Shown here piece by piece: positions 18,470-60,498 of a stretch of DNA of 64,000 bases (positions are counted from its first letter, which is position 1; the number at the start of each line of letters is the position of its first letter). The DNA comes from Heterodontus francisci (Eukaryota). The position numbers and the translations under genes were made by a program. The stretch is taken from NCBI RefSeq assembly GCF_036365525.1, contig NC_090376.1, positions 83,520,686 to 83,584,685 on the forward strand, in the 5' to 3' direction. A model generated the notes under the pieces. That model worked only from the letters and a program-made list of their open reading frames with translations, made no database searches and was not told where the DNA came from.

Positions 18470-20177
18470 TCGGGGTTTCTCAAATTGTGGTGCACATACC
18501 CCTGGAATACGGGAGACATCTCTGGGGGGTACGTGGGAGAGATTGTCTAATGGTGTACTTAATATCTAAGGCAAACAATAAACCATTCTTTTCCTTTTTT
18601 TTAAGTCATTACTTTTTTCATTGCATGTGTAAAGGAATATATAGTTACAAAGCTTCCTGGTAGATGTTTGCTCTGCCTGTTGTATTTTTCCCAAATGCTC
18701 GGGCATGCAGCGTGAACCACGGATGGGCTGGCGGCTTTGGTGCAGTGGGGGAGCAGTTTCCTGTGCCATTTGATCATCAGTGACCCCTCAGCCTGCTCTT
18801 TGAGCTTCCTAGCATGTGTTGGAGGTCTCCTTGGAGGACTCATCCTCTCCCAATCTATTTGGAGGTGGCAGCATCATCCGAAACGTCTGGGAGGAGGGGA
18901 TCATCACCAGCACTTACCTGACCTTTTGTCTGGAGAGACGAGACAAGCAGCCAGCAGTTTCCTGCAAGCGCGGGACTCCTGGTTGGAGCTGGATTTGCGG
19001 TGTCTGGAGGAGCAGGAGGTCAACTGCTCCATACAGCTCAACCGCCAACCAGAAGCACTGTGTCTCCAAGTTGGCCCTTCCGGGCTATGAGAGTGTGTTG
19101 TCTGTCCCCATGGCGAGTCTCTACACCCCAAGTGGAGCCTGATTCCTCCGGGATCCTGCTGCCGCTGATCAGCGCAAAGGAGCCAGGAGATGTCAGCAAG
19201 GCTAGACCATGTGAGGCAAGGTGGGAGACTCTGCTGAAAAATTCACCAACTTAGGTAAGAAATTCAGTGTTTTCATACATTTTTTTAAAATAATTTAATT
19301 CGCAATATCCCTAAATCAGAAAATCTACACATTATTTAACAGTCCATTAATAAAATATATCATTTACAGTTTATATAAATGTGATTATAATTGGTACCAA
19401 CATTTAAAGGGGTATTGTATTAATGAAACAGGTTTATCTGATTTGTGCGCAGATACAACACAACACAATAACCTGAATACCAAATTCAACAAAAGCTTGC
19501 ATTCAAATAGTGTCTTTAACGTGAAGAGAAACATTTCAAGGGACTTCACAAACGGAAGTTGGCAGGAAAAGGAATGTGAACCGTGGAGGGAGAGATTAGT
19601 ACGGTATGAACCAAAACCTGGCCAAAAAAATGTGTTTTGATAAGACTTTTAAAGGAGCAAAGACTGGTGGACATGCAGAGGAGGTTAGAGGGAGATCGAA
19701 TCCAATGAGTGGAAAACAGCTTGCGACTCAAACAATCACTCCAAACATTGTGCGCCTCTTCTTGTACAAACCACTTCAGTCTTTACATTAATGCCAACTA
19801 GTATCATTAAGCCAGTAAAATAAAAGCAAAATACTGCGGACGCTGGAAATCTGAAATAAAAACAAGAAATGCTGGAAATACTCAGCAGGTCTGGCAGCAT
19901 CTGTGGAGAGAGAAGCAGAGTTAACGTTTCGGGTCACTGAGCCAAACGTTAACTCTGCTTCTCTCTCCACAGATGCTGCCAGACCTGCTGAGTATTTCCA
20001 TCATTTCTTGTTTTTATATCATTAAGCCATTGTATATGTGTATTATAATTTGTACATTTTGTACAATTCTTGAGCATTCAAGGCGTTAAAATACTAAACC
20101 AGTATGCTGGTTGGGTTATGTGAGCAGCTGGTTGGTATTGAAGCAAATATGTAATAAGTAAAGTTTGGGAACCTCTG
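18470..20177. mobile_element. hAT (Charlie-like) non-autonomous element
   Basis: 8-bp TSD gtttaaac (18462-18469, 20178-20185) and imperfect TIRs tcggggtttctcaaatt / aagtttgggaacctctg. Confidence 0.75.
19815..20016. mobile_element. Fold-back Penelope pLTR mini-insertion
   Basis: Palindromic arms with 13-bp TSD tatcattaagcca (19802-19814, 20017-20029). Arms match the PLE terminus at 42849-42990. Confidence 0.85.
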
Positions 20178-20382
20178 GTTTAAACTATTAAGGCAATTTC
20201 TGAAACAGCACGTCCCTTTGGCTATTCGCAATAGGCAGAGTACTGACCGTACTCAACCAGCCTGTACTTGCAAAACTCAGAACACAATGTCAAACGTTCG
20301 CTGTGATTCCACGATTAGACAGCACTTACTGAACAATCCTAAGCGTGCTAAGAATTACACGAACAACCATTTAAGATTATCA

Positions 20383-20593
20383 TAAAAGCAAAATACTGCG
20401 GATGCTGGAAATCTGAAACAAAAACAAGAAATGCTGGATTCACTCAGCAGGTCTGGCAGCATCTGTGGAAAGAGAAGCAGAGTTAACGTTTCGGGTCAGT
20501 GACCGAAGAAGGGTCACTGACCCGAAACGTTAACTCTGCTTCTCTTTCCACAGATGCTGCCAGACCTGCTGAGTGAATCCAGCATTTCTTGTT
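20383..20593. mobile_element. Fold-back Penelope pLTR mini-insertion
   Basis: Near-perfect inverted arms with 14-bp TSD atttaagattatca (20369-20382, 20594-20607). Confidence 0.88.
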
Positions 20594-20861
20594 ATTTAAG
20601 ATTATCAGTCGGGCTCACAATGTGGCTTACTTATACTTTCTAGAAGCTTCATACAAAGGGACCTGTCCTCTGCAGGCAAAAAGAACATATCTAGGTGTTG
20701 CGCCTTTTCTGAATTAAACTAAGTGTGGGGGGCAATAGTTCCCTGATGTATTCTCCATGGCAACACCTCGAACAATCAGAGTCGACTTGCCAATCTATCA
20801 GTACCTTTTTCTCATGCAGTATAAATTGTTGCTCCTTTTGAAATTTAGTATCCTTACATCA

Positions 20862-20893
20862 GTCCTGATGAGTGCAAGATGAAAAGCTTCGAC
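20862..20893 (+). ncRNA. Minimal type-I hammerhead ribozyme-like motif (PLE)
   Basis: gtc CTGATGA gt-gcaag-at GAAA agct TC gac: core boxes, stem I gtc/gac, palindromic stem III. Confidence 0.6.
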
Positions 20894-20969
20894 AGCATGT
20901 CTCTTTTTTCTAATTCTACAAGCAATAAATAAGTTAACAACTTAAATTTATATAGCACCATTTAACATA

Positions 20970-21760
20970 GTCATGCAAGAAGGCACATTTAGTTGGGCAG
21001 TTGGAACCAGAAAGCAATTTTTCATGTGGGTATCAGGAATCAAAGAGAAATTTTAGGAGTTGGAGGTAATTAGTTTAAATTGCTATCTGGGACATCCCTC
21101 ATGTACCATGTGGCTATGGAGTTAGGTCTTGCCAGGGAGATGCCTTTTAGGTCAGGTTCTTTTTGGGTGCTTGCTGACGTAGACAGTCAGTTGGCTGTTG
21201 ATTTTGAAACCAGCTGGGCTCAGGAGCAAAGAGGTCATCAGAAACCAGGGGTAATTCTGTTTTGAGACAGGCCCATGCTCAAGCTGGGAAGTCCAGATTT
21301 TGCAGCTGTTAGAAAACTGGAGGTTTTGCCTAGCCGGATGCTAGAGGGAGAATCCCCTGGAAATCTGATACCTCAGAAGACAGCTGAGAAATTAAGAAAC
21401 TCAAAGTGAAATTCTAAAAGCTATTGTATACTTCAGATTGGTCCCAGGAGAAGTGAAGAAATCACCAAGGTCCTGTATTGTATAGGGGAACTCTTGAGGT
21501 GGAAGTAGCAGGCAGACAGGGAGTGTTCTGTTGAAATTTAAAGTTTAAAGTATTTGTCTTCATGTTCTGTTAAGATTTTAAGTTTAAGATCTGTGTTTCC
21601 AAGTTGTCATGTTAAGTTGGTAGTTTTTTGCTTTGCTTAACTCTTGTACAGTGAAGTATTTTTTGTTTAAAATGTGAAATCTTGTGTAATTCTTTCAGTA
21701 ATAACTGGGAATTTGACTTTCTCTTTTTAAAAGTTATTGGTCCCTAACGGAATCGTAACA
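20970..21760 (+). mobile_element. Probable solo LTR
   Basis: Ends ...ggaatcgtaaca. The 3' ~100 bp resemble 58130-58219. 5' end uncertain. Confidence 0.45.
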
Positions 21761-22516
21761 CATGCACCTGCCCTTTTCACCAGTTTGTCTATGTCCTCCT
21801 GAAGTCTGTTACTATCTTCCTCACTTTTTACTATATTTCAGAGTTCTGTGGTATCGCAAACTTTGAAATTATGCTCTGTATACCCAAGTCCAGGTCATTA
21901 ATATACACCAAAAAAGCAGTGATCCCAACGCTGACCTCTGGGGATACCACTGCAACACTTCCTCCAGTATGAAAAATAACCATTCATTACTACCTCTGCT
22001 TTCTGTCCCTTAGCCAATTATGTATCCAGACAACCACTGTCCATTTAATTCCATGGGCTTCAATTTAAGTAACAAGATCATTTCGTGGTATTTTATCGAA
22101 AACCCTTTGAAATGCCAAATACACATCGACCACACTGCCCTCATCAACCTTTTCTGTTACTTCATCAAAGAATGCAATCAAGATAGCTAAACATGATTTG
22201 CCTTTGACAATTCCATACTGGCTTTCATAATTAATGCATATTTTTCCAAGTGCCAATTAATTTTGTCCTGGTTTATTGTCTCTAAAACTTTCTCCACCAC
22301 CGTTAGTTTGACTGGCCTGAGGTTGCTGGTTTTATCTATCTCCCTCTTTTTGAACATTTGCAAACCTCCAGCCCACTGGCACCATTTCTATATCTAAGGA
22401 GGAATGGAAGATTGTTGCCAGAGCTTCCACTATCTCCACCCTTACATCGCTTAGCCACCAAGAATGTATCCCATCTGGACTTGGTGACGTTGCTGCTTTG
22501 TGCGCTGCCAACCATT

Positions 22517-23125
22517 TAGTTTAGCTTAGTTTTAGTTTAGAGATACAGCACTGAAACAGGCCCTTCGGCCCACCGAGTCTGTGCCGACCATCAACCACCC
22601 ATTTATACTAATCCTACACTAATTCCATATTCTCTACCACATCCCCACCATTCTCCTACCACCTACCTACACTAGGGGCAATTTACAATGGAGAGCCAAC
22701 TGTGCAACAGCCCCAACAAACAAATTTCTCTGCAGCACCTGTGGAAGAGCCTGTCACTCCAGAATTGGCCTTTATAGCCACTCCAGGCGCTGCTTCACAA
22801 ACCACTGACCACCTCCAGGCGCGTATCCATTGTCTCTCGAGATAAGGAGGCCCAAAAGAAAAAAAAAAGAAGACACTAATTCCATATTCTCTACCACATC
22901 CCCACCATTCTCCTACCACCTACCTACACTAGGGGCAATTTACAATGGCCAATTTACCTATCAACCTGCAAGTCTTTGGAGGTGGGAGGAAACTGGAGCA
23001 CCCGGCGGAAACCCACGCAGATACAGGGAGAACTTGCAAACTCCGCACAGGCAGTACCCAGAACTGAACCTGGGTCGCTGGAGCTGTGAGGCTGCGGTGC
23101 TAACCACTGCGCGACTGTGCTGCCC
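22517..23125 (-). mobile_element. HE1-like SINE with a nested RTE stub
   Basis: tRNA-like head gggcagcacagtcgcgcagtggttagc and a (ctaaa)n-type tail. Confidence 0.88.
22692..22872 (+). mobile_element. RTE-clade LINE 3' stub
   Basis: FLCSTCGRACHSRIGLYSHSRRC* (C2H2-like C-terminus typical of RTE/BovB), short 3' UTR, A/AAG tail, 76-bp direct flanks. Confidence 0.8.
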
Positions 23126-23914
23126 GCTGCAACATTCTTTTGACTACTATTTATACTTTAATATTTATAAGTTTAAAAAAGACTTTTGGGTTCCTTTTTA
23201 TATTACCCACTAATCTATTCTCATACACTCTCTCTTGTGCTCTTTTTAAAGTTCTCCTCTGCACTTTCTGTATTCAGCTTAGTTTTCTACTGATATTTAT
23301 CATAATCCTCCTTTTTATGTTTCATTTTAATCTCTGTATCTTTAGTTACCGACAGAGCTTTAGCTTTGGATGCCCTTCCTTTCCCCATTGTGGGAATGTA
23401 TACACAAACTATCTCCCCTTTGAAGGACTTCCATCGCTCACTTACGGTTTTACCTACCAACCTTTGATTCCAATCCACCTGGGCCAGATCCCTTTTCAAC
23501 TCGCTGAAATTAGCCCTCCTCTAGTTGAGTATTTTCATGTGATTCTTCCTTGCTCTTTTCCATAATGACTTTAAACCTAAGGATATTGTAGCCATTGTTT
23601 CCCAAATGCTTCCCCACTTTCCTCAAAATTGTTTTAAACTGTCAAAAATGTAAGAATATTAAAAGCAAAAATTAAATGCTACAAATTGGACAGTGGAGAT
23701 TATACAATGTACAATATAGTTATTCAGCTTATTAGAGCTATAAAATGATGAAGGTATATCTCTTAATGCGTTTCAGATTCAACCATGCTATCGTAATGAA
23801 GATCTCCTCCTCACAAATATAGACTTTCTTAACTATTCCATTTTGTGGGCACCCATTATATCAAATCTCTGCTTACACCCAGTCTGTTCTGGTGATGTAT
23901 ATTACAGGGAATTG

Positions 23915-26402: not shown

Positions 26403-26580
26403 TAATTGGGCTCTAAGCCCTGCAGTGGCTACATTCAGTTGCCTGGAGGTTACTAAACTGGGATAAGCTTGTACTGCCAGTAGTTGCATTCTAAATGGGA
26501 GCACAATGTGGACCAAAGCTTCTTCTGAGGAGAACTAGCATATGCAAAGCCATATACTTTCACTGTTGCTCCTATATACT

Positions 26581-30710: not shown

Positions 30711-32027
30711 AAGGATATCTAGAACGACAGCAGTATTTTGTTGAAAGCTATTTTGTTGCGTTAGAAATTTCAGTTTCCGAGACAAAAATGGTGAATAAAA
30801 TTTTATCAAAAGATAGTGATTCAATTGCTTCAACTGTTTTTCACTATTGGTAGGTTCTTCTGACTGATCATCCAAGATTGGTTGACTTCATAAGTTCTTG
30901 ATAATTATTCACGCGCAGATTCACTCGTGTTCTCTTTCTACCCATCTCCCCACAACACCCCCGACATTGTCTCTCATAAATGCTTGTCTCACTCATTTTT
31001 GTCATTCTTTTTCTCTCATTCTTTCTTTCAGTTCCTTTTTCCTGCACGTATTCATCCCCACTTTCATCTCTCCTCTCATACCTACTTTCCCCTATCTCTC
31101 GGTTACTGGCAGCAGTTCTTCATCTCAAACCTGACACTTCAGCTAACACAATCACATTTCCTGTTACAGAAGTCAGTAGCGTATTCCATGTTTGTGCTTG
31201 TGATGTTGATGTGAGCTGGTTTATTAGTTAAGAACAAAATATGTACAGCATGCTAAAATATAATATAATGGCTAAAATTAGTTTATATTGTGTCTATTGA
31301 AATATATATCGATGAGTTGAGTCAGAATGGGAAGAAAACTGTCAGCTTTATTGTGGCTGCCATTTTTTTATTGAGATGCCGTGTGTAAAGAAAACGTCCA
31401 ATGAGCACACTTCAACCACAAAAGAGCTATTTGCAGCTTGTGAAATGCCAGTTGGCCACCCTTGTTTCATGCAAATGGCAAAAAGAGGCAACACTCCCTT
31501 TGGGTACTTTACGATAGGCAGTGAATTTCTTGTCAATTAGCTCCTTATAGAAAAGGACTCAAGATGAATATCTCGAGGTTGGATTGAAGACTATCGGGTA
31601 TAGAGGGAATTATTGATAGCAGTGACAAGTAGTTCAATAACTATTTTAGCATCAAAATTCCATGACACCATTTGCAGTGCAGTGAAACAGTCATTCCACC
31701 AACTGCTTTGATGAGATCATGGCCCCACCCGACTCCTGGGAATGGTCACTTAAATACTATTTATAGGCATTGGTGCCTGTAGTGACAGGGTGTGGCCTAC
31801 CAATGGCCCAGAGACATCCTTAAGTTATGCCAGAATGTAAGCAGGGCAGGCAGAAAACCTGCCTTCCCCTCCCATCAAATCTCCTTCCCTTTTCTGAATA
31901 TGGCAGAAGCCCAGCAGAGTTGGTAGATGCAGTGCATGGCTGCTTCTTGAATCCGTGTGTCAAAGAAGCCATGATAAGTAATGCTCATCTTAAGCTGGTA
32001 TTCAGGAAAATCCCAAATAATGTATAA

Positions 32028-32340
32028 GGGCAACACAGTGGTGCAGTGGTTAGCACCGCAGCCTCACAGCTCCAGGGACCCGGGTTCGATTCTGGGTACT
32101 GCCTGTGCGGAGTTTGCAAGTTCTCCCTGTGACCGCATGGGTTTTCGCCGGGTGCTCTGGTTTCCTCCCACAGCCAAAGACTTGCAGGTTGGTAGGTAAA
32201 TTGGCCATTGTAAATTGCCCCTAGTGTAGGTAGGGAATATGGGATTAGTGCAGGGTTAGTATAAATGGGTGGTTGTTGGTCGGCACAGACTCGGTGGGCC
32301 AAAGGGCCTGTTTCAGTGCTGTATCTCTAAATTTAAAAAA
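32028..32340 (+). mobile_element. HE1-like SINE, full length
   Basis: A box gtggtgcagtgg, B box ggttcgattc, V-domain, CR1-type tail. Confidence 0.9.
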
Positions 32341-33333
32341 ATGGAAATTATAGGACACCTGTTGGAAAACGACAATAGAATGGTAAAGGTTAACACAAAT
32401 ATGGGAGTCTGAAATATCCAAGACCTCGTCAACATCTAGATAAAAGTAGCAAGATCCAAGATTTGAAAAAAATTGTGGCAGCAGGAACATGACTGGCAAG
32501 AAAATACAATAGAAAAATGTTGCTGCCTTTTTCGATCAAAATGTGTTTCTTAAAACAAGATCAACTCAGCATCAGGCATGATAATACTGTTGTACTTTGG
32601 CAAACTATAGATATACACTTGGGCATTTCCATGCAGAACTCTTGATATGCAATAACATGAGATAGAATTTCTATGGGGATTCTTCCAATCTCCTGCTGTA
32701 CCTTCAGCTGAACCCCTGCAGAAATGCCCATGTACAGCTTTTCCCCCAAGGTTTCTACAAAAGTTACAGCAGGAGATCACCAGCGGATATTTTGTAGACT
32801 ATAAAGGCCTTCTTTTTCACAATATACCTTTATAATTCTGCTCAACTACCAGTATGTTATTTAAAAGATGAAAATCTTAAATTGAACTAAATGTTCCCCT
32901 TCACTATTTAGCCTTGTTTCCATACATGCAAAGCTTTCAAAATTAATATTTAATTTTATTTTCCCACAGTAAATGGTGTCAAAACATCACAACTATTTAT
33001 TAACAAAGAGACATATGATTAAGTTTACAGGCTCCAAAAATGCTTCAGATCAGCAGAATTTGTTTCTAATTTAATCTTAGCCCAGTCACACATCAGTCTT
33101 GGAACTGATGTTAGTTTAGGGAGCCAAACACTGATTTAATTTAGAACATCCTCAATACTCCTGCCAAGTTTTCACCACGGGCATGCAGTTTGTAATCAAA
33201 ATACTCTAGTTCCTAATTTCTGCAAAACAAGATTTGTGTGGTCTGTAAGCGATACGAATCTTTAGCTTTGTAAATGTATGAATCTTCCTTAATGTCTTGC
33301 TTTGAAAAGCATAACAAGAATGATCGGACTTAC

Positions 33334-33396
33334 CGATGTGAGAGTAAAGGGATGGCTCTCAAATGCTGAGACGCTTGGACATTGCAGAACAATATA
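33334..33396 (-). CDS. NOX4: NADPH oxidase 4 exon (equivalent of human exon 11; HPFT FAD-binding motif)
   Basis: Acceptor catttcatttag, YIVLQCPSVSAFESHPFTLTS, donor gtaagt. 63 bp, phase 0/0. Confidence 0.95.
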
Positions 33397-36414: not shown

Positions 36415-37330
36415 AACCCTCCTGCGGTGGGGGGGGGGGAGGCTCTGGTTTTTTTCAGGCTAGCTTGCTAAAATGGAGGTGTCTCAGCTGTTCTCAAGTG
36501 TTCGCTGCTGTTATAATAGGCTTTTTTAGGGTTTTCCCCTTTGCTTGAGAAATTCACTTTGGTTTTTTTCAGGCTTGGTTGCCTTACTGGAGTGTCCCAG
36601 TTCTTGAGAGTTCCCTGCTGTTTAAATAGGCTTCTTAAGGGTTTTCCCTTTCCATTGAGAATTTTAGTTCGTTTTTTTCAAGCTTGCTTGCCTTAATGGA
36701 GTATCCTGCTGTGTTCGGGGATTTCCCGTGCGTTTCGACAGTTCGCATGCTTGTCAGGGGCTTCCCGCTCTTTGCCCTCACATTCAGCACGAGTGAAGGA
36801 TTGTTTTTACCCCCATTTTCTTTCCCTTCGAGCATGATGCCTTCAGAAAATTACTTTGTTTTCAAAGAGCTTTTAACTCACTAGATAGCTGGATTCTATT
36901 TGCAGGTGTGGACGCTTCTATTGCAGCTCCACAGTCTCTTCTGTAGCTAAGTAGTTTTCTTACTGTTCCGGGTTAGTATTTCTCTTCAAATTTCTTTGTT
37001 GTTCCCCTGGTGTTTCTTGTTAAGGTAATGAGATCTTCAAATTCTCCTGGTTGCTTTCACTGTTGCCACCTTGTTGCATTGTTGGGTTTGTATTAGTAGC
37101 ATTAGGGCATTCTAGAGAAAGTTGTAGTCTCCGGTAACAATTCTTTATTATTTAGTTACTATATAAACTCTCCGCACGCTACCTAAGTGAGCGTCCTTGG
37201 TGCTGCTAAACCTTCTTCTTTCACGCCTATCTCATGTGACTGTTACATCATCGCTCGTAAAGTGGGAGGGGTCTCTCTCAGTGTCTCGGTTATTACCCCT
37301 TTACATCCTTATATTAACTATCCTACAACA
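36415..37330 (-). mobile_element. Truncated LTR retrotransposon: 5' LTR, PBS and leader with a ~115-bp tandem repeat
   Basis: Minus-strand LTR tgttgtagg...aataaa...cccaaca (37330-37080), PBS-like tggcaacagtg (37058-37068), ~2.5 degenerate repeat units at 36445-36720. Confidence 0.6.
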
Positions 37331-37334
37331 AATT

Positions 37335-37840
37335 ACAACAACTTATGTTAATATTGTACCTTTAACATAATAAAACATCCTAAGGCACTTCACAGGAGCT
37401 TTACAAAATAAAATGACACCGAGCCACAAGAGGAGTTATTCAGTCAGATGACCAAAAGCTTGGTCAAAGAGGTCAGTTTTAAGGAGTGTCTTGAAGGAGG
37501 AAAGCGAGCTGAAGAGGCGGAGAGGTGTAGGGAGAGTACTCCAGAGCTTAGGACCGAAGCAACCAATGGAAACACAATTAAAATCGGGATGCTCAAAAGG
37601 CCAGAATTAGAGCAGCACAGATATCTTGGAGGATTGTGCGGCTGGAGGAGATTACAGAGATAGGGAGGGGCAGGGCTATGGAGGGATTTGAGAACAAGAA
37701 TGAGAATTTTAAAATCAAGACATTGCTTGACTGTGAGCCAGTGCAGGTCAGCAAGCATAGGGGTGATAGGGGAAAGGGACTTGGTGTGAGTTAAGAGGCA
37801 AGCAGCAGAGTATTTGACCTCAAATTTACAGAGGGTAGAA
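37335..37840 (-). mobile_element. L2-clade LINE 3' fragment
   Basis: SPITPMLADLHWLTVKQCLDFKILILVLKSLHSPAPPYL. Confidence 0.85.
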
Positions 37841-37844
37841 TATG

Positions 37845-38322
37845 GGAAAACAAGTAAAACAAGGAGACCTCCCTGCAGGCTTGTGGAGGGGCCTCCTCCT
37901 TGGGCAATCTGTGGCCCAAATAGGGCCCCCGCCTGGAAATAGCCCACCTACGTTAACCCCTCTCCCCTGCTCTCAATTCCCATCCTTTACCCCGCCCTCG
38001 ATGGGGCCTGCCGGTCTGGCCCCGGTGATCCCACCTCACTTACCTTGGGTCCAGGCCTGGATGCAAGGCGTCTTGAAGTATCGGCAGTGGCCACCATTCC
38101 CAGTGGCGCTGCTGATACTACACAGCTGCGGCCTTCTGATTGGCCAGCAGCTCCTGGAGGCAGGATCCCTGTCTTTAAAGGGACGGAGACCCCGGCACCA
38201 GGCACATAAGTGTCTTTGCGCCGTTAGATCGCACCGGGTAGGCTCTGCAGGGCTGAAGTGGGGCTCCCCTTGCCTTTTTGGCCCAGCACCAGGAGCCTCG
38301 CGGCGTGATAAAATCTAAACCC
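37845..38322. mobile_element. Harbinger-like MITE fragment
   Basis: Related to the interior of 7483-8043 (cagtggccacc..cccagtggcgctgctg). End reads gataaaatctaaacccc. Confidence 0.55.
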
Positions 38323-38548: not shown

Positions 38549-38646
38549 TTCCGAAGAAGGGTCACTGACCCGAAACGTTAACTCTGCTTCTCTTTCCACA
38601 GATGCTGCCAGACCTGCTGAGTGGTTCCAGCATTTCTTGGTTTTCA
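38549..38646 (+). mobile_element. 98-bp Penelope pLTR mini-insertion beginning at the hammerhead-like motif
   Basis: 14-bp TSD ctccatattccttg (38535-38548, 38647-38660). Starts ttccgaagaagggtcactgacccgaaacgtta. Confidence 0.85.
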
Positions 38647-40272: not shown

Positions 40273-40938
40273 CTTAAAAGGAAAGAAAAAAATTTCTGTT
40301 AGAAAATGACAGATCTCTATTCTAAATAGAATCTGTTTTTATGTCAAACTGGTGAAACTGATTATTGCTTAAAATATTCCACACATTTGCTTCATGAAGA
40401 ACAATTAAGCCACATAGGAAGGATGGTTCCTCTCATAATTCTAGTATTAGTTTGAGCTACAAAATCTACAACACTTCTGCAACAAATGGATAGTTATGAC
40501 CCTCAGGAGAAATCTGAGCAAGGTTGAAGACTGGACATACAGTAAAAGGAAAGTACCTAAACTTCAATTTTTAACAGCACAACGGTGATATTATTCTTCA
40601 GGCCCTCAAAAATTAACGATTAGGTCTTTTTGCTACTATGACAGTCCAATAAGTGCCCTTTTTGCTCTCTCTAGAAGCAAGAAATTTAAAAAACGCAAGT
40701 CTGCACTAGAAGCATTGCTGCACAAACAAATTTCTCCCCCTTTGTCTCCAGCTCATAGCTTGCTGTCCCAACACAACACGACAATCAACATAGCCAACTG
40801 AATGTTCACCAGAGGAAGTCTTGATCAAGCTGTGCATTCTGAGCACTACAGTTCATTCTAGATGGCCATTACTGTGTCATCGGGCATACCACCATGTTTC
40901 CTCTACCGCCCCATGCACTGCATGGAAAGCTGTGAACT

Positions 40939-41618
40939 TATTTATTTATTTAGAGATACAGCACTGAAACAGGCCCTTCGGCCCACCAAGTCGGTGCCAA
41001 CCAACAACCACCCATTTATACTAATCCTACAGTAATCCCATATTCCCTACCACATCCCCACCATTCTCCTACCACCTACCTACACTAGGGGCAATTTACA
41101 ATGGCCAATTTACCTATCAACCTAGGGCGGCACAGTGGCGCAGTGGTTAGCACCGCAGCCTCACAGCTCCAGGGACCCGGGTTCGATTCCGGGTACTGCC
41201 TGTGTGGAGTTTGCAAGTTCTCCCTGTGTCTGCGTGGGTTTTCTCCGGGTGCTCCGGTTTCCTCCCACAAGCCAAAAGACTTGCAGGTTGATAGGTAAAT
41301 TGGCCATTATAAATTGTCACTAGTATAGGTAGGTGGTAGGGAAATATAGGGACAGGTGGGGATGTTTGGTAGGAATATGGGATTAGCGTAGGATTAGTAT
41401 AAATGGGTGGCTGATGTTCGGCACAGACTTGGTGGGCCGAAGGGCCTGTTTCAGTGCTGTATCTCTAATCTAATCTAATCTAAGTCTTTGGCTCTGGGAG
41501 GAAACAGGAGTACCCGGCAGAAACCCACGCAGTCACAGGGAGAACTTGCAAACTCCGCACAGGCAGTACCCAGAACTGAACCCAGGTCGCTGGAGCGGTG
41601 CTAACCACTGCACCACCC
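40939..41618 (-). mobile_element. HE1-like SINE (host copy)
   Basis: 6-bp TSD tgaact (40933-40938, 41619-41624); interrupted at ~41124. Confidence 0.85.
41125..41482 (+). mobile_element. HE1-like SINE nested in the opposite orientation
   Basis: Full head gggcggcacagtggcgcagtggttagc and a (ctaat)n tail. Confidence 0.9.
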
Positions 41619-42848
41619 TGAACTGTGCATCCCTTTTGCTTTGTGACTGGAACCCCCTTGCACCAGTTACAGCTCCATATGTTGCATGGTAGAGCATGTT
41701 TCCACCAATTTCTGCCTCTTTTGACCTGGATGACATGACTGTTTCAGTTCCATGACTGTTAAATTTTTGACTTGTCACTTGTGCAACTCAGTATCCCAGA
41801 TACTCACTATAAATTTGGGTATGTTGTAGCCAACTATTCTGTTTGGGGGCATCAAAATAGTTCAAGTAAGCAGATTGAGTATTTACCTTTATGGGAGTTG
41901 ACTCTTACTGCCCTATATCTACTTGTCTAATAGTGTGACGTGGTGGGGTCTAACAATAAAACCTGCTTGTGATTTAGACTAGATTTCTGACTTGGGTATG
42001 TGCATTTCTTCACTCTTTTTGAAGATGAACTGAATTAACCCTGGGAGATGAGCTTGATTCATATTACTAAACAACTTTATTTTGAAGTGGAGCAACAGAA
42101 TAACCCTAATGATCAGAGTCACTTGGGTTTAATCCATACCAATGTATCTTCATATAATGACACAAAAAGAAACTAACCTAACTGCAATGCTACCCCACTG
42201 TGATAGATCATCACACTTAAATAAAATAACCCCTCTGCATTCTGTCCGACAGTGTAAGATAGAACCTGCTCACCTCCCATCTTTTGCTGACTTTTGCTTT
42301 GTGCCTATCTGTGTTAGGGTCATATTTCTGAAAACCCTTCCGCCTTTTTGATGTCTGTGTCTGTCTGCTTAAACCCCACTTCACAAACAGACAGAAATCA
42401 TAGCGTTTTCCAACACAATGGGTGAGATAGGTTTTCCGAATTACCTAGACATACTAGCATTTATTGTTTAGTCAATGGAAAAAACAACTGCCACGCAGTA
42501 TATTAATCATCCCTTCTCTGACTGCCCATGAGAATATACTTTGCTTTTAAAAACCTAACATGAAAAAAACTATTTTTCCAAATCCTTTGTGGGGAGAAAT
42601 GATCACAAAATCCAGAAAGGTTACAGGAAAATATCTAATAGAAGGGTTATCTAATTAGAGTGATCTCCATCACGCATGGATATGTCTATTCGCTGTGTCT
42701 CATACCCAGGACTGTTCAGTTCCTGTATACTCCTGGTTCCTCCTCATATTCGATGAAATAGTGCAATTCATCCTCTTCAGAAGTTTGAGTGAGCCTTGCT
42801 TGAATTCAAGCCGAAGACATTCTGACACTAAGGCTGAATTTTGACACT

Positions 42849-44207
42849 AAAATAAAAGCAAAATACTGCAGATGCTGGAAATCTGAAATAAAAACAGAAA
42901 ATGCTGGAAATACTCAACAGGTTTGGCAGCATCAGTGGAGAGAGAAGCAGAGTTAACGTTTCAGGTCTGTGATCTTTCATCGGAACTGGCAAAGTTTAGA
43001 AATGTAATAGGTTTTAAGCAAGTGAAGCAGGGGTCAGGGGGGAAGAGAACAAAAGGGAAGGTGTGTGATAGGATAGAGCGCAGGGGAGATTAAATGACAA
43101 AGATGTCATGGGACAAAGGCAAAGGGAGTGATAATGGTGTGGTGAAAGGCAGAGCATTAGTCCAGACAGAGTGTTAATGACAGAATAATGAACAGCTCTG
43201 TCCAAAAGCACAAACATGAAAAACCAAGTTTAAGGCAGGCACATGGTTAAAAAATAAAATAAAATAAAAAGGCCAATCATGCTCTGAAATTATTGAACTC
43301 AATGTTGACAATGGAAGGCTGTAGAGTGCCAAATCGGAAAATGAGGTGCTGTTCCTCAAGCTTGCGTTGATGTTCGCTGGAACACACAGCAGGCCAATGA
43401 CAGAGATGCAGGTGTAAGAGGAGGGTGCCGAATTGAAATGGCAAGCAACCGAAAGCTTGGGATCATGCTTGTGGACTGAGTTCCGCAAAGTGGTCACCCA
43501 ATCTGCGTTTGGTCTCCCCATTGTAGAGGAGACCACATTGTGAGCAGCGAAGACAATACACTAAATTGAAAGAAGTACAAGTGCTTCACCTGGAAGGAGT
43601 GTTTGGGGCCTTGGATGATGAGGGGAGAAAAGGTAAAAGGGCAGGTATTACACCTCTTGTGATTGCATGGGAAGGTGCTGTGGGAAGGGGACGAGGTGTC
43701 GGGGATAATGGAGGAGTTGACTAGCATATCATGGAGGGAACGATCCCTTCAGAATGCTGACATAGGAGGGAAAGATGCATTTGGTGGTGGCATCACACTG
43801 GAGGTGGCAGAAGTGACAGAGGATGAACCTTTGGATGTGTAGGTTGGTGGGGGTGGAATCTGAGGACAAGGGGAACCCTGTCGCGATTCTAGGAGGGAGG
43901 GGAATGGGGAGGGGAAAATTGTGGGAAATGGGTCGGGCATGGTTGAGGGCCCAGTCAACCACAGTCAGGGGGACTCCTCAGTTGAGGAAAAAGGAAGACA
44001 TATCGGAAGTGCTGTTGTGGAAGGTTGCATCATCAGAACAGATCCATCGGAGACGGAAAAACTGGGAGAATGGAATGGAGTCCTTACAGGAAGCAGGGTG
44101 TGTGGAAGTGTAGTCAAGGTAGCTGTGGGAGTCGGTGGCTTATAATGAATATTAGTTGACAGCCTATCCCCAGAGATGAAGACAGAGACATCGAGGAAGG
44201 GAATAGG
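42849..44207 (-). mobile_element. Penelope-like element (RT C-terminus, Cys linker, GIY-YIG, pLTR), 5'-truncated
   Basis: IPFLDVSVFISGDRLSTNIHYKP, FPCNHKRCNTCP, CSQCGLLYNGETKRRLGDHFAE, VACHFN. The terminus carries ccgatgaaagatcacagacctgaaacgtta. Confidence 0.88.
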
Positions 44208-44639
44208 TAATGTCACCCTCTCCTTCTCCATATACCGGAGCAGCACACACTAATCGCAGTGGGACTGCCGACCAACCCTTCCCTTTGGCCACTCTGATTG
44301 GCCCTCATGCATCCAGTGTTCACCTGCCATCCTTAATTGCATGGTGAACACGGAGATGGCCTGTTAACTGGCTGCTACCCGTAAGCTCACGTCGGAGTAC
44401 ACACTGCCAACATAAGCGGGGTCAGGACCCGGAAATGGTCCCAAAGTGTGTAAGTATTTTAAGTGGAGAAAATTCCGGCCTAAGTTTCTGAAGGTAAATA
44501 CTTATGGCTTGCCTTTGGACAACTGCACGATTTAAGAACAGATGTTAAGTCAGGGAAAACTTTCTTAAACGCTGTTTTGAGGCTTGTAGTGGTTTGGGCA
44601 GATATTAGATCAACATTCCAGATTTGATTAGCTAGGTGG

Positions 44640-51660: not shown

Positions 51661-52508
51661 TGCGTGGGCAGAAAAGTGGTAGATGGAATTTAACGCTGAA
51701 AAAGTGTGAGGTGATACACTTTGGAAGGAGTAATGTGACATGGAAGTATTCAATGAATGGCCTGACACTGGGAAGTTCCGAGGAACAAAGGGACCTTGGC
51801 GTGTTTGTCCACAGATCCCTGAAGGCAGAAGGGCAGGTTAATAGGGTGGTGAAAAAGGCATATGGGACACTTGCCTTTATCAATCGAGGCATAGATTACA
51901 AAAGCAGGGAGGTCATGTTGGAGTTGTACAGAACTTTAGTAAGGTCACAGCTGGAGTACTGTGTGCAATTCTGGTCGCCACATTATAGGAAGGATGTGAT
52001 TACATTGGAGGGGGTGCAGAGGCTATTCACCAGGATGTTGCCCGGGATGGAACATTTAAGCTATGAAGAGAGGTTGGATAGGCTTGGGTTGTTTTCACTG
52101 GAGCAGAGAAGACTGAGGGGTGACCTGATCGAGGTGTACAAGATTATGAGGGGCATGGACAGGGTGGATAGGGAGCAGCTGTTCCCCTTAGTTGAAGGGT
52201 CAGTTACGAGGGGTCACAAGTTTAAGGTGAGGGGCGGGAGGTTTAAGGGGGATTTGAGGAAGAACATTTTTACCCAGAGGGTGGTGACAGTCTGGAATGC
52301 ACTGCCTGAGAGGGTGGTAGAGGCAGTTTGCCTCACTTCCTTTAAAAAGTACCTGGATGAGCACCTGGCACGTCATAACATTCAAGGCTATGGGCCAAGT
52401 GCTGGCAAATGGGATTAGGTAGACAGGTCAGGTGTTTTAATGCATCGGTGCAGACTCGATGGGCCAAAGGGCCTCTTCTGCACTGTATTATTCTGTGATT
52501 CTGTGATT
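51661..52508 (+). mobile_element. CR1 LINE 3' fragment (young)
   Basis: 252-aa ORF KCEVIHFGR...LEYCVQFWSPH... and an (attctgtg)n tail. Confidence 0.92.
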
Positions 52509-54195: not shown

Positions 54196-54313
54196 CAATG
54201 TTCCCTCTCAGCTGTGCGGATGCATGGCCATGCGATCGTGCAGCAATCTAGAACAAACTGCATAGTGCAACAAACAGGCTGCGCACAACAAAGTAAAATT
54301 AAAGGGACCATTG
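54196..54313. mobile_element. 118-bp hAT (Tip100-like) MITE
   Basis: TIR caatgttccct / agggaccattg with 8-bp TSD gttactac/gttattac. Confidence 0.75.
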
Positions 54314-54379
54314 GTTATTACCAAAAATAAAAGCAAAATTAGATTACAGATGTGTCAACCTGAACACCCAAATTTTACA

Positions 54380-54584
54380 AAAGCTAAACACTGCATACGC
54401 TGGAAATCTGAAATAAAAACAGAAAATGCTGGAAATACTCAGCACGTCTGGCAGCATCCACGGAGAGAGAAACAGAGTTAACGTTTCAGTCAATGAAAGG
54501 TCATCAACCTGCAATGTTAATTTGGTTTCTCTCTCCACAGATGCTGCCAGACCTGCTGAGTATTTCCAGAATTATCTGTTTTTA
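54380..54584. mobile_element. Fold-back Penelope pLTR mini-insertion next to the NOX4 donor
   Basis: Inverted arms with TSD acccaaattttaca / acgcaaattttaca (54366-54379, 54585-54598). Confidence 0.82.
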
Positions 54585-54601
54585 ACGCAAATTTTACATA
54601 C

Positions 54602-54806
54602 CTCTTGTAAATTAGACTGAAATTTTGGGGCTTCAGTGCAGACTCTCTCAGAGTTGTTTTCCATCCCAGACTCTGGCTCAAAGTAGCCTTTTGGAAATGG
54701 CTCTGCAGGATTCTTGGATGCAGGGAAATCATCGATTAAGGTTTTATTCAGGTCAATGCAGCCAGGAGGGTGTTGATCCAAATTCGCCTGATATTTCAAC
54801 ATGCCT
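54602..54806 (-). CDS. NOX4: NADPH oxidase 4 exon (equivalent of human exon 9; extracellular E-loop)
   Basis: Acceptor tgtcttccag, then A GGC ATG TTG AAA..., translating GMLKYQANLDQHPPGCIDLNKT...EPFPKG...VCTEAPKFQSNLQE, then donor gtatgt. Resembles human GLLKYQTNLDTHPPGC...EPFPEG...ICMEEPRFQANFPQ. 205 bp, ends in phase 0. Confidence 0.93.
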
Positions 54807-55834
54807 CTGGAAGACAAGCAATAGTGCAAAGGTTTTTCCAAACTTGTAGTGTACCTTTCAAAAGTTTCTAAACTCATTAATGCCTCCTCACTTTAACTCT
54901 TGTTTTTTTTTAAAGCCACATTGAGTATTCAGGATGACCAATACTACTATATTCTGAACTAGAAATGAATGACATATATGAGCAGCTTTTTAAAAACACA
55001 CAAATCCACTTCACTCTTGTTACAAAATGCAAACAGTCTCACACTATTTATATAATTTGTACTGGGAGAAAAATGTTTGCATTGTAAAGTTTAAAGCTAC
55101 TGTGCCTCTCTTCTTACTATGAGTCATTGCCACGATTATACAAAGTCAAAGCTTTTCATTCAGTAATGTGATCAACTAAAGATATTGGCAGTTCTTACTT
55201 TTCTGTACAATAGTTTCACTATTGATATGCAATTGCCAGATACACCAAACAGGATCCACATGCCAGCCTTTAATAAGGACATGACGTCCATTCAACTAAC
55301 ATATACAGAGAAGTGACTACATTTGTCAAACATACCAATGCTTCTGGTGAAGTATTGCCCAGATGTTGTCGCCACAGACTTGTGGGAATACAAATTCCCA
55401 GTAAGACATACATTGTTACATTAAAAATACACAACATTGTTAGAGATTCTTCCAAACAAATGTCGCAGTATGTCTGCAGAGGAGTCAAAGTGGTGTCTCT
55501 TGGGGTTGTCTCAAGGAAATATGAGATTAACGTTTTTAAATTTTAAAAAAAGCAAAGCAAGTCCTGTTTACTTAGGAAGAGTAAAGATTTTTTCCCATAA
55601 AGCTTTCTTGGCTCTCATATTAAACAAATTCTCTCTGTCTGGAGAAAATAATTTCCTTCAGATGTCCATTGTTTTAAAAACCTATGTGCTTTTCAAATAA
55701 GAAACTATCGGATTTTTTTCTGTCTTCACTTTTCTTCCTCACCTTCAAGATAATTATTGCCTAATTGGAAAATGATAATATTAGTGTTGCTTTTACCTTC
55801 TGCTGCATTGACTATTATCAATGTGTGAGACTTG

Positions 55835-56690
55835 TGTTACAATCAGGTGAGAAAGGTGTCTAGGGGTCCCTTTTAGCCTTCACCTGGCCTTACTGTAACA
55901 GGGTTTTGTTTTAAACACACTGTTTTGAGCTCCCCCTTGGTGAATCCTTGTTCACCGCTTTCCAATTATAAGGCAAAGAAATGAGCACAAATAGGTTTTA
56001 TTAGGCTTAAAGAAGAAAAGTGAACTTTATTAAAACTTAAACTCTAATTCGGTTAACTTCTACGGATACATGCCACGACCCACACGAGCATGCATATGCG
56101 ATACGCACATGCAAATAGAGACAGAAAAGAGCAGAAGAAAAAGAAAGAAGTTTGATACAATCTCTGAAGAGGGGCTTTTGTAACTGTGCTTCAAGCTCAC
56201 TGTAGTCCTTGCTTGTAAGTAGATCTTGCTTTTCGTTGGGGCAGGGTATTCTTGTTAAACCTTGTTCACTGTAGGAGACTTTTCTCTCTTGGGGTTCATA
56301 TGTCTCAATGGTTTCTGAAGCTGCTGAGAGAGATGAGAGCAGACAGGACAGAGGCTGCGGAAAGCCAGCCACGAGAGGTATTTTCCAGTCCAGGAGCAAA
56401 TAGCTTTCTGCTTTCAAGCACTGTTTCTCCAATTTAAAAACTCCCCTAGTTGGCCAGCAGGTGATCACATGACTGATTGGTTTGACCAGGTCTCTTCTGG
56501 TTATTGGGGCAGGGACTGGTTCCTCTGTTCCAACACTGTCTGCTAGTACGAAAAAAAAGTCTTTCCAGCCAGGGGCTTCGCAACCCCTTGTAATAGGCCT
56601 TCTTTTCTTCCCAGTAACAATTTTAAAATTTAATGTCCATGTGGCGAAATATGTATGCCTCATTCTTGGCAGGTGGGGGCCTGCATGACA
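55835..56690 (-). mobile_element. Solo LTR of the Gmr1-like family
   Basis: Reverse complement of the LTR at 26581-27397 (tgttacaatcaggtgagaaaggtgtctagg...gggggcctgcatgaca). Flanks cttg/ctag. Confidence 0.88.
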
Positions 56691-57249
56691 CTAGTAAGTT
56701 TCCTTTCTCCAACTTAATGCTTTTTCCACTTGAAGGTATTGGCTGGGGTAAAACTCCCCTGCAACTGATTGCCCACATGGCAATTCTTCATGTCAGACCC
56801 CCAAAGGGAGTGAAGGCAAGTTATTCAGCTGTGAAGCATAACAGCCAAATCTAATTCTGTGCTCATCCAATGTCCAAACATAGCAACTTCTGGCAGAGAT
56901 TGTCGGAATCCTAATTGATTTTCCCTATGCCAATCTGCGGCACTGTGGATAATTGCAGTGCTCTGACACTGCCCTGAAAATCGAACTAGGTCCTTGCTTT
57001 ATGACTCAGATAGCGATGTTACCTTTGTTGCCAGTGAGAGAGGCCAGAAAGCAAATGACAGACTTTCCTGTTCCTTTGCTTGCATGTACTGGATCGCCTT
57101 GGTACAGAACATAGAGGAAAATCAGGTGGGGAATATCACATAGCTACAAGGAAGCCTGCATAATTTTCCATCCTTATGGGTGTGCAAACCTCCTCACCTG
57201 ATTTTACTCTATTTGACAAGATTCAACACACCCAGGCACAAGAACAATG

Positions 57250-58219
57250 TTGTGAATGCTGCTCTTTGTGATATGGTTATGTTTCAAAAACTGATCTTTA
57301 ATGCAGTGTAAAATGGGTTCGGAGGAGACATTTGACCTCACACCAAGTCTGCCCAGAGTCAAGCCACGTGTTCTGGTTACCATGAGAATCAGGAACCCTG
57401 ATCAAAGACCCTTTTGAAAGCAGAGTGTAGGGTTGATACACGTAATGGACAATGGATTTCACTCTTCCAGACTCTCACATTGTAAACAGGGAGCCAGGGG
57501 TGCTGAAAATGCAAATTCGAGTTGTAATCTTTAACAACCAGAAACAAAGGAAGGCCCAGGTGATTTTGCTATAGTTAGACATATGGACTCTGAATATAGT
57601 AAAAGCCAAACGACTATTGACTTCTGTTCTGGACAAATTCAACAGGATTCCCTCGATATGGCAGGCTGAAAGGAAGACACGAAGACGAGCAGTGGCAGCC
57701 TCAAAAGAAAGAGAGAGAGAAACAACAACTCTCAACAGATCACAGATATAGCAAAAGGCTATGAAGATTTGAAGCCAATTCAAAATTTGAGGTTTGTGGA
57801 GAAGAAAAGACCAATTGGATCAGCAGAAATTGCCTTATTAAGGGAAGTCCAGGTCAAATGTGCTTGGAAGAAGTGAGTGAGAAGGACACTGGCTTTGAAA
57901 AGGACTGGGAGAACCAATCCATCACAACTGGGAAGAGTCTGGGACTTTTAACAACAAGGATACCTTATTTTTCCTGAGAACACTGTAATGTATAAATGTG
58001 GTGTGGGGTTTTCAAGTGTGTTAATAAGTTAATGGGAAATACCTTTCTCTAATTTAGTGTATTAGCTACCTACTAAGTACTATTCAGTGAATGTTGATTT
58101 TGAGTTTAGTTGTTATAGTAAGTCTCAAAACGTGAAATCTTCTCATGTAATTCTTTAATTGTTCCGGGGAGTTCATATCTCTTGTTTTAAAGTTAACGAT
58201 CTCTACAGAGGTTGTAACA
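57250..58219 (+). mobile_element. Probable solo LTR
   Basis: Ends gaggttgtaaca; 3' part similar to 21670-21760. Confidence 0.45.
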
Positions 58220-59799
58220 AGAAACGCTGCCTCAGTCTTTGGGACTGTTGGAAGCTCCTGGATTTATTTGGAGGAATTGTACAATAGAAACTGTGTATTT
58301 TAAAGTATTGTTTGGGGGATTATGTAAGTGTTTGTGCTTGGGAAGAGGCATATCCACTCCAGCCAACTATGTCCTTTTAATCCGTGTCTTGAATGATTGA
58401 AGCATTGAATTCTTTTGCAAGTACTTTTCTAAACTCCAAACATGAACCAAATAGAATTTTCCTTTGTCAGCTATTCACATTAAAACTTATCTATACTGGC
58501 ACTGACAGCTCTGTGCAGGGGTCGCAAAATCAATCTCCATATGTCGATGTTTAAATTCTGCGATGTAATGAAACAAGTAGGCTTAGCCCAGAACACTTTG
58601 GCGTATAAAGCAGTAATGGATTCTGCCTGGTAGGTGTAGAAGTCATGCACACTGAATCAAAAAATCTGGAGCATAAAATGTTTCTTCTAAAAAAAAATGT
58701 CAACCCAGATTTTGCTGTCGCAGATCAACTAATGGCATCTGCTATTAGATGGACTTGCCCATGCATGTTTTGGTTTTTAAATTTTTTTGTGGCAATTTGG
58801 ACAGCGTGGGAAACCAAGCATCCAGGACCTGAGTGAACAGGGCAAGCAACTGTATATCTTCTTAACCTATCAGATTGTAAGACTGAGAAATAAATGAAGG
58901 AATAACAGAGAAGGAAGTGGAAATTAGAATTGTTGAATTCCATGCAAAATTAAATACAGAAAGAGAAATACAGAAGGGGAAAGAAATATGGATAATTTAC
59001 GAGACAGGAAAAAGAGACAAAAAAGGACCATGCTGAACATCATTTTGGGTATGGCGTCAGTGCATGCGCTACGGACATGCGGCGGAAGTATGCAGAGTAG
59101 ACATGCTGTGACATCGGTCAGCATGTAATGCTGATTTGATTCTAGCAGTGCCATTTCCGGCCTCTACACTCCAATTAACGCCCTCTCTTAATCTGAATAT
59201 ACATTCAGGAACAGAAATATGTCCACCTGCGCTATTTATACGGATAAAAAGCCACTTTTAGATTAGTTGCTGATAGACTTTTGCTTGCTGCTGCTGAGTT
59301 AGTAGAACTGTTTGGAGGTTTGTACTGCTACTTAAAGTTGGTGAAGTCTACAGGGAGTGGTGTGGCATGTGGTGAAGGCCTTGGTTCTCTCTTCAAGAGT
59401 TCTGCTCTCATCACTTGCTCCCTGTTGTGGGTGTTGTACTTTTGATCTCCCTTAGCCTGCAGCATGACAGAGAGAATGAGCAGAAATGACACCGAGGAGG
59501 AAAAATTGCTCGAAGATGGAGGAGGAGAAGGAGGGGAGAAGGGCACTTAGCAGGAGGCCATAACCACAAAGGGTCTTCAAGGAACAATTCTCCTTTCTCA
59601 ACCTCAGTGAGGTAGAGTGTGCGCGAGGGTTCTGTTTTACTAAGGAGGTGCTCACTGAATCTGCAACCCATTGCAAGCAGACCTGCAGCCTCAGAGCAGG
59701 GTGAGGACGGCATTACCAGTGGCTGTAAAGGTGACCATGACCATGAACCTCTTCACATCAGGCTCCTTCCAGGCTGAAACAGGCAACATCTCCAACATT

Positions 59800-59940
59800 T
59801 TGCAATGTTCTGATGAAAGGTCACAGACCTGAAACGTTAACTCTGCTTCTCTCTACACAGATGCTGCCTAACCTGCTGAGTATTTCCAGCACTTTCTGTT
59901 TTTATTTCAGATTTCCAGCATCTGCAGTATTTTGCTTTTA
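59800..59940 (+). mobile_element. Penelope pLTR mini-insertion with canonical hammerhead core
   Basis: TSD tccaacatt (59791-59799, 59941-59949). gtt CTGATGA a aggtc-aca-gacct GAAA c GTT aac at 59807-59841. Confidence 0.8.
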
Positions 59941-60498
59941 TCCAACATTATACAGTTCACCATCCACTGTTGTCTGAGGGAGGTCACTGATGCTTTGTAT
60001 GCAGAGAAGAAAATATATTGCATTCTTTCTTTCCAGACAGAAGTAGGCAGAGGAATAATGCAGCTTTGCTAGGATTGCAGGCTTTCCCATGGTGCAGGAT
60101 GCTATTGACTGCTCACATGCCCCTTTTTTGGGCGCTGCATGTAAATACAGAGAGATACCATAACCACAATGGGTTCCACTCCTCTCATGGGCAATTAGAG
60201 AAGGGAAGCAAATGCTGGCCTTGCCAGTGATGCCCACATCCCATGTAAGAATTAAAAAAAATGTCCAGCTCATGTGCAACCATACACAGCGCATCATAAA
60301 GGTGAATGTCTAGTATCCTGGCAGCAGTCATTATTCTGCAGCAGTCCACTGTACCGTAAGCATTTGAGCCACCATGAGAAACCAGAGGGTGGCTACTGGG
60401 TGACAAGGGCTGTCTGCTGACCAACTGGCTCATGTATCCAGTCTGCAACCCAAGCACGCATAGGCATCATGCATATAACAAGCTCCATGCTGCCGCAT

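Follow-up and report, generated by a model that had tools for sequence, protein, structure and literature searches.

Penelope-like elements (PLEs) that encode an endonuclease (EN+), such as Penelope and Poseidon, leave 5'-truncated copies, head-to-head inverted copies of their pseudo-long terminal repeat (pLTR) and a one-sided tail of 30-40 bp, together with target site duplications (TSDs) of 8-10 bp, palindromes of 18 and 38 bp at the pLTR 5' end and insertions into other PLE copies (Arkhipova et al., 2013, PMC3846280; Craig et al., 2021, PMC8557442; accessible portions of both). The Poseidon protein nicks and extends both target strands in vitro and starts reverse transcription at two internal sites that define the tail; ribozyme cleavage is not needed for this activity (Frangieh et al., 2024, PMC11167929). 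The pLTRs further carry minimal type I hammerhead ribozymes, mostly as single motifs in truncated copies, and in Schistosoma also as opposite-strand pairs 100-700 bp apart (Cervera and de la Pena, 2014, PMC4209133, accessible portion). How the inverted and tandem ends of PLEs are built and which role the minimal hammerheads play in vivo are stated as open questions in this literature (PMC11167929; accessible portions of PMC8557442 and PMC4209133). Here, we compare these systems with a group of short pLTR inserts within 64,000 nucleotides of the Heterodontus francisci genome (assembly GCF_036365525.1, contig NC_090376.1, positions 83,520,686 to 83,584,685 of the forward strand), referred to as the window. 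The architecture of the inserts is mostly known, and they do not represent a new kind of element; what they add is a sharper rule on position and polarity, according to which 5' ends and inversion points cluster at the hammerhead and each hairpin pairs a tailed antisense arm with a tail-less sense arm.

Nine arms of the pLTR family at six loci were identified by sensitive BLAST over the whole window. They make up three hairpin inserts (H1, H2 and H3), two linear inserts (L1 and L2) and one long sixth copy (copy 6), the reference numbering of which is used for the hammerhead, the tail and all read ends and joints:

19815..20016, two-stranded: hairpin insert H1, 202 bp, with an exact 13-bp TSD (19802-19814/20017-20029)
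19815-19936 and 19931-20016: tailed antisense arm and tail-less sense arm of H1, with a 6-nt shared junction (19931-19936) in stem II
20383..20593, two-stranded: hairpin insert H2, 211 bp, with an exact 14-bp TSD (20369-20382/20594-20607)
20383-20504 and 20503-20593: tailed antisense arm and tail-less sense arm of H2, the latter starting from the core box, with a 2-nt shared junction
38549..38646, plus strand: linear tail-less insert L1, 98 bp, 5' end 2 nt before the core box, with an exact 14-bp TSD (38535-38548/38647-38660)
42845..44230, minus strand: copy 6, a 5'-truncated PLE of about 1.35 kb with reverse transcriptase (RT)-thumb and GIY-YIG remnants (stops, frameshifts) followed by a tailed pLTR; the left end is approximate
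42852..42887, minus strand: tail of 36 nt between the inferred RT starts, with the tail-less end at about 42887-90 and the tailed end at about 42848-54; loose read ends at 42887 and 42848-55
42951..42987, minus strand: minimal type I hammerhead of copy 6, with helix I 5' strand 42987-84, core box 42983-77, stem II 42975-63, G12 42962 and predicted cut 42955/42954
54380..54584, two-stranded: hairpin insert H3, with a TSD (54366-54379/54585-54598) of 11 bp exact or 14 bp with one mismatch
54380-54496 and 54493-54584: tailed antisense arm and tail-less sense arm of H3, the latter starting within the core box, with a 4-nt shared junction
59800..59940, plus strand: linear tailed insert L2, 141 bp, 5' end 10 nt before an intact hammerhead core (59810-59838), with an exact 9-bp TSD (59791-59799/59941-59949)

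An earlier note, drawn from the sequence, had proposed the five short inserts with TSDs of 9-14 bp, and all five were recovered where it had placed them, with exact TSDs of 13, 14, 14, 11 and 9 bp. By comparison, exact repeats of at least 9, 11 and 13 bp occurred in 0.87%, 0.2% and 0.07%, respectively, of 3000 randomly drawn, similarly spaced pairs of 36-mers. The TSDs contain 72% A+T as opposed to 55% for the window. The note had also placed the inversions of the three hairpins in stem II or the core box, which base-level comparison of the arms confirmed, and had the linear copies start 2-10 nt before the box, which agrees with 2 nt for L1 and 10 nt for L2. Copy 6 was absent from that list. 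The only additional BLAST match in the window at E<0.1 was a 16-nt tail-like stretch at 54324-54339, 40 bp upstream of H3, which matches the extreme end of the tail (E=0.012) and represents either an ultra-short stub or chance.

Judged from their sequence, the inserts and copy 6 belong to an EN+ PLE family, because copy 6 displays RT-type and GIY-YIG matches upstream of the pLTR. Copy 6 passes through the hammerhead into endonuclease and RT-thumb coding sequence and has the EN+ PLE layout of RT-thumb, then endonuclease, then pLTR. A 53-aa piece of it shares 84% identity over 50 aa with an H. francisci protein annotated PF26215 and 69% identity with an RT-bearing protein, and a 40-aa piece gave a weak GIY-YIG match (E=0.06). 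No TSD was found around copy 6. We take the family to be Poseidon-type from the style of its motifs, not from a tree. Protein searches yielded neither a full-length ORF nor a protein beginning with the pLTR-encoded frame, both being weak negatives. Pattern scans for further copies of the family gave none in viral contigs and none in metagenome contigs; four bacterial loci from the family pattern scan were dismissed as chance, the matches spanning just 21-34 nt.

The inserts resemble the EN+ PLEs in 5' truncation, the head-to-head inverted pLTR, the one-sided tail, the TSDs, the palindromes and the insertion into another PLE copy. They differ from the elements described in the accessible portions of PMC3846280 and PMC8557442 in that the body between the inverted pLTRs is absent, the whole insert measuring 200-210 bp. 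The hammerhead was recognised by a custom descriptor and by eye. In its strict form, the minimal type I descriptor matched twice in the window, in L1 and L2, and a relaxed scan for core boxes matched 12 times, five of them in this pLTR family. With Rfam, no hammerhead family reached the gathering score in the window or appeared among six weak matches (E<=10) over L2. The minimum-energy folds lacked the hammerhead monomer, as expected for this class of motif, and folding energy was not counted as support. The motif shares with the PLE hammerheads in the accessible portion of PMC4209133 the core boxes, an extra base before stem II, a stem II of 5-6 bp, palindromic positions 15.2-16.2, the absence of a helix III loop, a short helix I and the occurrence mostly as single motifs in truncated copies. 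Unlike those hammerheads, the L1/H2 subfamily has a C at position 4, and cleavage of the shark motifs is predicted.

The hairpins are asymmetric. In all three, an inverted pLTR occurs together with a TSD and a one-sided tail of 30-40 bp, as the antisense arm carries the full 3' tail and the sense arm ends 36-40 nt short of it. Both types of end are discrete in the reads (tailed 42848-55, tail-less 42887), and both also occur as linear copies, L2 being tailed and L1 tail-less. At the junctions, the nucleotides common to the sense and the antisense readings number six in H1, two in H2 and four in H3, and the three junctions differ from each other. The tailed antisense arms end within stem II. 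Read on the strand that opens with the tailed arm, the unpaired centre has sense orientation in all three window hairpins: the centres of H1 (base 19937) and H2 (20505-20511) match the L1 sense sequence exactly, and that of H3 (54497-54500) lacks an exact 12-nt match and agrees with the L2 sense sequence at 11 of 12 nt. Thus, neither arm is a subset of the other, because the tail is missing from the sense arm and the centre from the antisense arm. This argues against the earlier proposal that a single cDNA switches or folds back at the ribozyme, as the tail sits on one arm and the unpaired centre derives from the other.

The same anatomy was encountered in an animal-type contig of distant origin. 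Twelve distant PLE loci from metagenome contigs comprised one hammerhead hairpin, one long inverted arm and one unrelated palindrome (L014). The hairpin (L016:4157-4383) measures 227 bp, lies within a TSD of 13 bp and has a hammerhead in its middle. Its antisense arm alone bears an extension, of 59 nt, its sense arm begins at helix I, and its centre is sense, as in H1-H3. It was unsought and appeared in the flank of an RT match, which does not imply kinship to the family of that RT. Scans of viral contigs for motifs of this type gave none, and blastn against phages found none. The long inverted arm (L015, 540 nt) is a counter-example, as it is joined in coding sequence and not at a hammerhead. 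A further locus (L009:2043-2430), located downstream of a PLE RT match, is a tandem pair of 194-bp units that share 98% identity and in which no hammerhead was found.

Within the window, 5' ends lie at the motif for 5 of the 6 loci and 8 of the 9 arms, copy 6 being the exception. If ends were spread uniformly over 150, 300 or 1350 nt, at least five of six would fall into the 44-nt motif with a probability of 0.14, 0.0012 or 3e-7, respectively. As the window alone is not significant under the shortest null, clustering beyond it rests on the read profile. Public reads or contigs of four runs (X1, X17, X21 and X22) out of 24 listed were mapped to 600 bp of copy 6 at 80% likeness. X21 consists of raw reads of a capture library, X1 and X17 of contigs; X22, a restriction-site-associated (RAD) library, was not used to judge depth, being dominated by a small number of restriction-site starts, and the last 3 of 30 bins (43386-445) were excluded because of a break private to the reference. 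In X21, summed depth was 37,300-37,900 in three bins of the pLTR body, dropped to 33,600, 23,600, 13,500 and 10,400 in the bins spanning the motif and immediately beyond it, and did not exceed 7,200 in the endonuclease region. The loss of depth per nt reached 0.017 across the motif, compared with 0.0002 in the body and 0.0011-0.0018 upstream; this corresponds to a fall across the hammerhead of about two-thirds, an upper bound, at a rate about tenfold that of the upstream loss. Contig depth just upstream of the motif was 11% (X1) and 3% (X17) of that in the body, summed contig depth being no copy number.

The main 5' loose ends that are not artefacts, among those listed, were at 42981 (258 contigs, X1) and 42985 (19 contigs, X17), both with mixed flanks, in agreement with L1 and with where the sense arms of H2 and H3 begin. 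Ends lying a few bases beyond 42981 are also counted there, because the reference has a private mismatch at 42982. Three other loose-end peaks (42916, 43025 and 43385) were attributed to differences found only in the reference and discarded. The earlier claim that 5' ends and inversion points cluster at the hammerhead is thus borne out by 8 of 9 window arms and by read depth in three of the four runs, depth being flat over the pLTR body and falling steeply at the motif. We regard this clustering as real with considerable confidence.

The clustered ends do not coincide with the site of cleavage. Relative to the predicted cut, the 5' ends, placed by hand, lie upstream at -21 (H1), -29 (H2), -27 (H3), -31 (L1) and -39 nt (L2), and all eight window arms reach at least 8 nt past the predicted cut. 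A distance of 21-39 nt upstream of the cut rules out the sense and linear ends as cleavage products, and since the arms reach past the cut site, they were copied from RNA uncut at this site.

Taken together, the inserts are probably by-products of ordinary target-primed retrotransposition of a Poseidon-type PLE, in which the hairpins are built anew at each locus from two starts. Observed at the loci are the family, the TSDs, the tail asymmetry, the positions of the ends and the junction microhomologies, and we infer the nicking, the two RT starts and the joining of cDNAs. According to the favoured model, the PLE protein would nick both target strands 9-14 bp apart, and RT would begin inside the pLTR RNA, uncut by the ribozyme, at one of two sites 36-40 nt apart. 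A single start would yield a linear stub, either tailed (L2) or tail-less (L1). Two starts, one per nick, would yield two antisense cDNAs, which may then join at self-complementary sequence in stem II and the core box to form a head-to-head hairpin. Two separately started cDNAs are favoured over the snap-back of one strand because the tail and the sense centre sit in different arms; a tailed antisense arm is paired with a tail-less sense arm in all three window hairpins and in L016. The Anolis carolinensis Poseidon element PAc is alike in its two tail-delimiting RT starts, the nicking and extension of both strands, an uncleaved RNA template and a hammerhead about 90-125 nt upstream of the RT starts, and unlike the present case in that its main text describes neither hairpin products nor a clustering of 5' ends at the hammerhead (PMC11167929).

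The ends would cluster if the template ends, or RT stops, just upstream of helix I. RT stops are expected at the near edge of an RNA structure. The ends are found at the far (5') side of the motif, past the copied stem II, and run-off at the RNA 5' end is therefore tentatively preferred over stalling. In this version the RNA would begin just upstream of helix I, and reverse transcription that starts in the cap-proximal pLTR would give cDNAs of 100-135 nt, which would account for the abundance of stubs as well as for a depth that is flat over the body and ends sharply. RT stalling at a folded or dimerised ribozyme is a possible alternative. As a possible cause of the 5' boundary, positions 42985-87 were considered, which may be initiator- or splice-acceptor-like, given a short match to the consensus.

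Twin priming by the L1 retrotransposon (a name unrelated to our insert L1) likewise joins cDNAs from opposite nicks by microhomology, which gives rise to an inversion inside a single TSD. It uses non-overlapping parts of one RNA, whereas the arms described here cover the same pLTR sequence from fixed starts. Already published are the inverted pLTR, the one-sided tail, the TSD, the junction palindromes, the two RT starts and the hammerhead. The junctions in stem II or the core box and the constant polarity of the arms were not found stated in the accessible portions of PMC3846280 and PMC8557442, and the openly accessible literature, supplements lying outside this scope, yielded no mapping of PLE truncation or inversion points to the hammerhead and no statement of arm polarity.

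Several points weigh against these conclusions. Only four hairpins (H1-H3 and L016) were compared at base level, the polarity of H1 depends on one base and on the assumption that its donor resembled L1, and the H2 junction shares only 2 nt. Perfect 6-nt palindromes in helix III are unused in all four hairpins, and the join is therefore not simply made at the best microhomology; position counts more than the length of microhomology in joining. The helix III dimer interface itself was discarded as a join point, none of the four hairpins being centred there. With regard to the clustering, a capture library mapped to one old and diverged reference copy will have sequences of other subfamilies clipped, so that the size of the drop is an upper bound; depth troughs at 43026-45 and 43226-65 show such clipping artefacts. 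Copy 6 and the long inverted arm of L015 have ends away from the motif. Finally, run-off is at odds with D. virilis, in which, according to the accessible portion of the source, the start precedes helix I by about 120 nt in unspliced RNA, made up of 46 nt and a 75-nt intron.

The next best explanation is that a single strand, whether antisense RNA or the first cDNA, snaps back at the hammerhead and primes its own extension, an endonuclease later trimming the tail off one arm, which is close to the model of Arkhipova et al. (2013). The junctions do lie in short hairpin-forming sequence, and the arms of H2 differ at 1 of 75 nt and have rare variants in common. In their accessible portions, PMC3846280 takes palindromes at inverted junctions as signs of self-priming and PMC8557442 suggests endonuclease resolution as the origin of the tail. 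However, snap-back of a tailed cDNA predicts an antisense centre, found in none of the four hairpins, and a tail-less cDNA is unable to create the tail by snapping back. In addition, a linear tail-less copy exists (L1), and both ends match the RT starts observed in vitro (PMC11167929). Self-priming thus appears unlikely, with the reservation that the tail-less cDNA, if it folded back briefly and then paired with a second cDNA, would lead to the same product as the favoured two-start route.

The hairpin of about 200 nt, or the stub of about 100-135 nt, might itself be a non-autonomous element that is transcribed and reinserted by the PLE protein. Short arms are far commoner than ORF sequence (depth 37,000 vs at most 7,200 in X21), the H2 sense arm and L1, of one subfamily, start 2 nt apart, and non-autonomous PLE derivatives are known from accessible portions of the literature. 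Joints from the opposite strand to 42981 occurred, among the joints listed, in six contigs of X1, two of X17 (these with high summed depth) and one read of X21. Such recurrence at 42981 is also expected from repeated joining by microhomology and from the pooling of ends by the reference mismatch at 42982. The earlier note had envisaged a stereotyped palindromic unit that spreads in a retrozyme-like manner, which fits poorly with the window: none of the three pairs of hairpins shares a junction, and the arms of H1 and H2 are closest to their own partners, with 2 and 1 differences, respectively, of about 75 nt within and 4-7 between the two hairpins, H3 being too decayed for this comparison (11 within, 7-13 between). 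Furthermore, L1 and L2 carry no host sequence from a parent locus. Animal non-LTR retrozymes (PMC7229834, accessible portion; bioRxiv 10.64898/2026.07.22.740005) are like the inserts in being short, non-coding, pLTR-related and hammerhead-bearing; they consist of head-to-tail tandem units with a hammerhead each and give circular RNAs, whereas the inserts are single or head-to-head, have TSDs and lack a second motif on the same strand. Head-to-tail units each with a complete hammerhead were found at none of the six window loci, and the sense and linear 5' ends, at 21-39 nt upstream of the cut, are not the unit ends that cleavage would define in a retrozyme. A mobile stub or hairpin is accordingly improbable, and of the earlier interpretation as a whole the clustering at the hammerhead is supported, whereas the stereotyped mobile unit, the retrozyme-like spread and the fold-back of a single cDNA are not.

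The least probable explanation is that the ribozyme cut defines the inserts by way of retrozyme-like circular or cut RNA intermediates, the former being proposed in the accessible portion of PMC4209133; in the window, tandem units are absent, all eight arms extend at least 8 nt past the cut and the six measured sense or linear ends lie 21-39 nt past it or beyond, and no RNA-seq reads ending at the cut were found for PAc (PMC11167929). A lead in its favour comes from X21, in which the top raw-read joint among those listed connects 42954 back to 42887 (700 reads, 212 starts, 2-nt ambiguity), and thereby the predicted cut site to the tail-less start. At 42887 there are 3107 loose ends, the consensus of which stops at the base that this joint also uses, and a rough mixture estimate assigns 800-1240 of them to the joint class. 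The chance of one random end falling into the 3-nt target is about 2-7% (3/140 or 3/44 nt). However, among the joints listed the joint was present in one contig of X1 and none of X17 or X22, and in a capture library such as X21 single loci may reach thousands of reads; the X21 loose end at 42854 (4438 reads, agreement 0.59) resembles a single captured locus. The joint may therefore represent one locus or array. The 68-nt head-to-tail joint excludes the hammerhead core. As a lead only, the joint would be the expected trace if RT jumped template on reaching the 5' end of a cut RNA.

The favoured two-start model and this lead can be joined in one tentative reading, which we consider possible but doubtful. 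The PLE hammerhead would organise integration besides cutting RNA, with two starts on opposite nicks and cDNAs stitched via the self-complementarity of the ribozyme as one rule for inverted pLTRs and hairpin stubs across animals; in addition, some germline templates would be truly ribozyme-cut and leave tandem junctions exactly where the ribozyme cuts, so that the genome would record in vivo cleavage by a minimal hammerhead, which RNA-seq did not show. The stubs are suited to such questions: they are very numerous (77,294 matching reads in 1.7 Gb of X21), short enough to be read whole, and retain both RT start sites, the junction and the TSD. A stub census could separate two-start joining from self-priming and reveal any ribozyme-cut templates. 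Such hairpins could also be mis-annotated as miniature inverted-repeat transposable elements (MITEs).

Some minor observations concern the inserts themselves. The target of H2 is the remnant of a second PLE family (20220-20910), an endonuclease-like frame flanking the insert on both sides, with hammerhead-like core boxes of its own near 20866-20895. At 20594-20603, 9 of 10 nt of the H2 target equal the element's own tail just past the tail-less start, as if pairing between target and RNA had aided priming, which is a single case. An open frame in the pLTR begins with an ATG in the core box and extends across the tail (59813-59938; 42 aa in L2, open in copy 6 too); the L1/H2 subfamily lacks the core-box ATG, and the frame gave no protein match. 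Two tracts within 59813-59938 are, by their match to the consensus, presumably splice-acceptor-like.

Other repeats occur elsewhere in the window. At 40938-41616, a repeat with a tRNA-like head lies inside an opposite-strand copy of the same repeat family, and further copies are present at 11421-11729, 22521-23125 (interrupted, with an internal duplication) and 32027-32342; we take it to be of the short interspersed nuclear element (SINE) type. A non-LTR retrotransposon occupies 1185-6154, with a 524-aa ORF1, presumably of the zinc-knuckle type, and a broken ORF2, to which we would assign endonuclease and RT domains.

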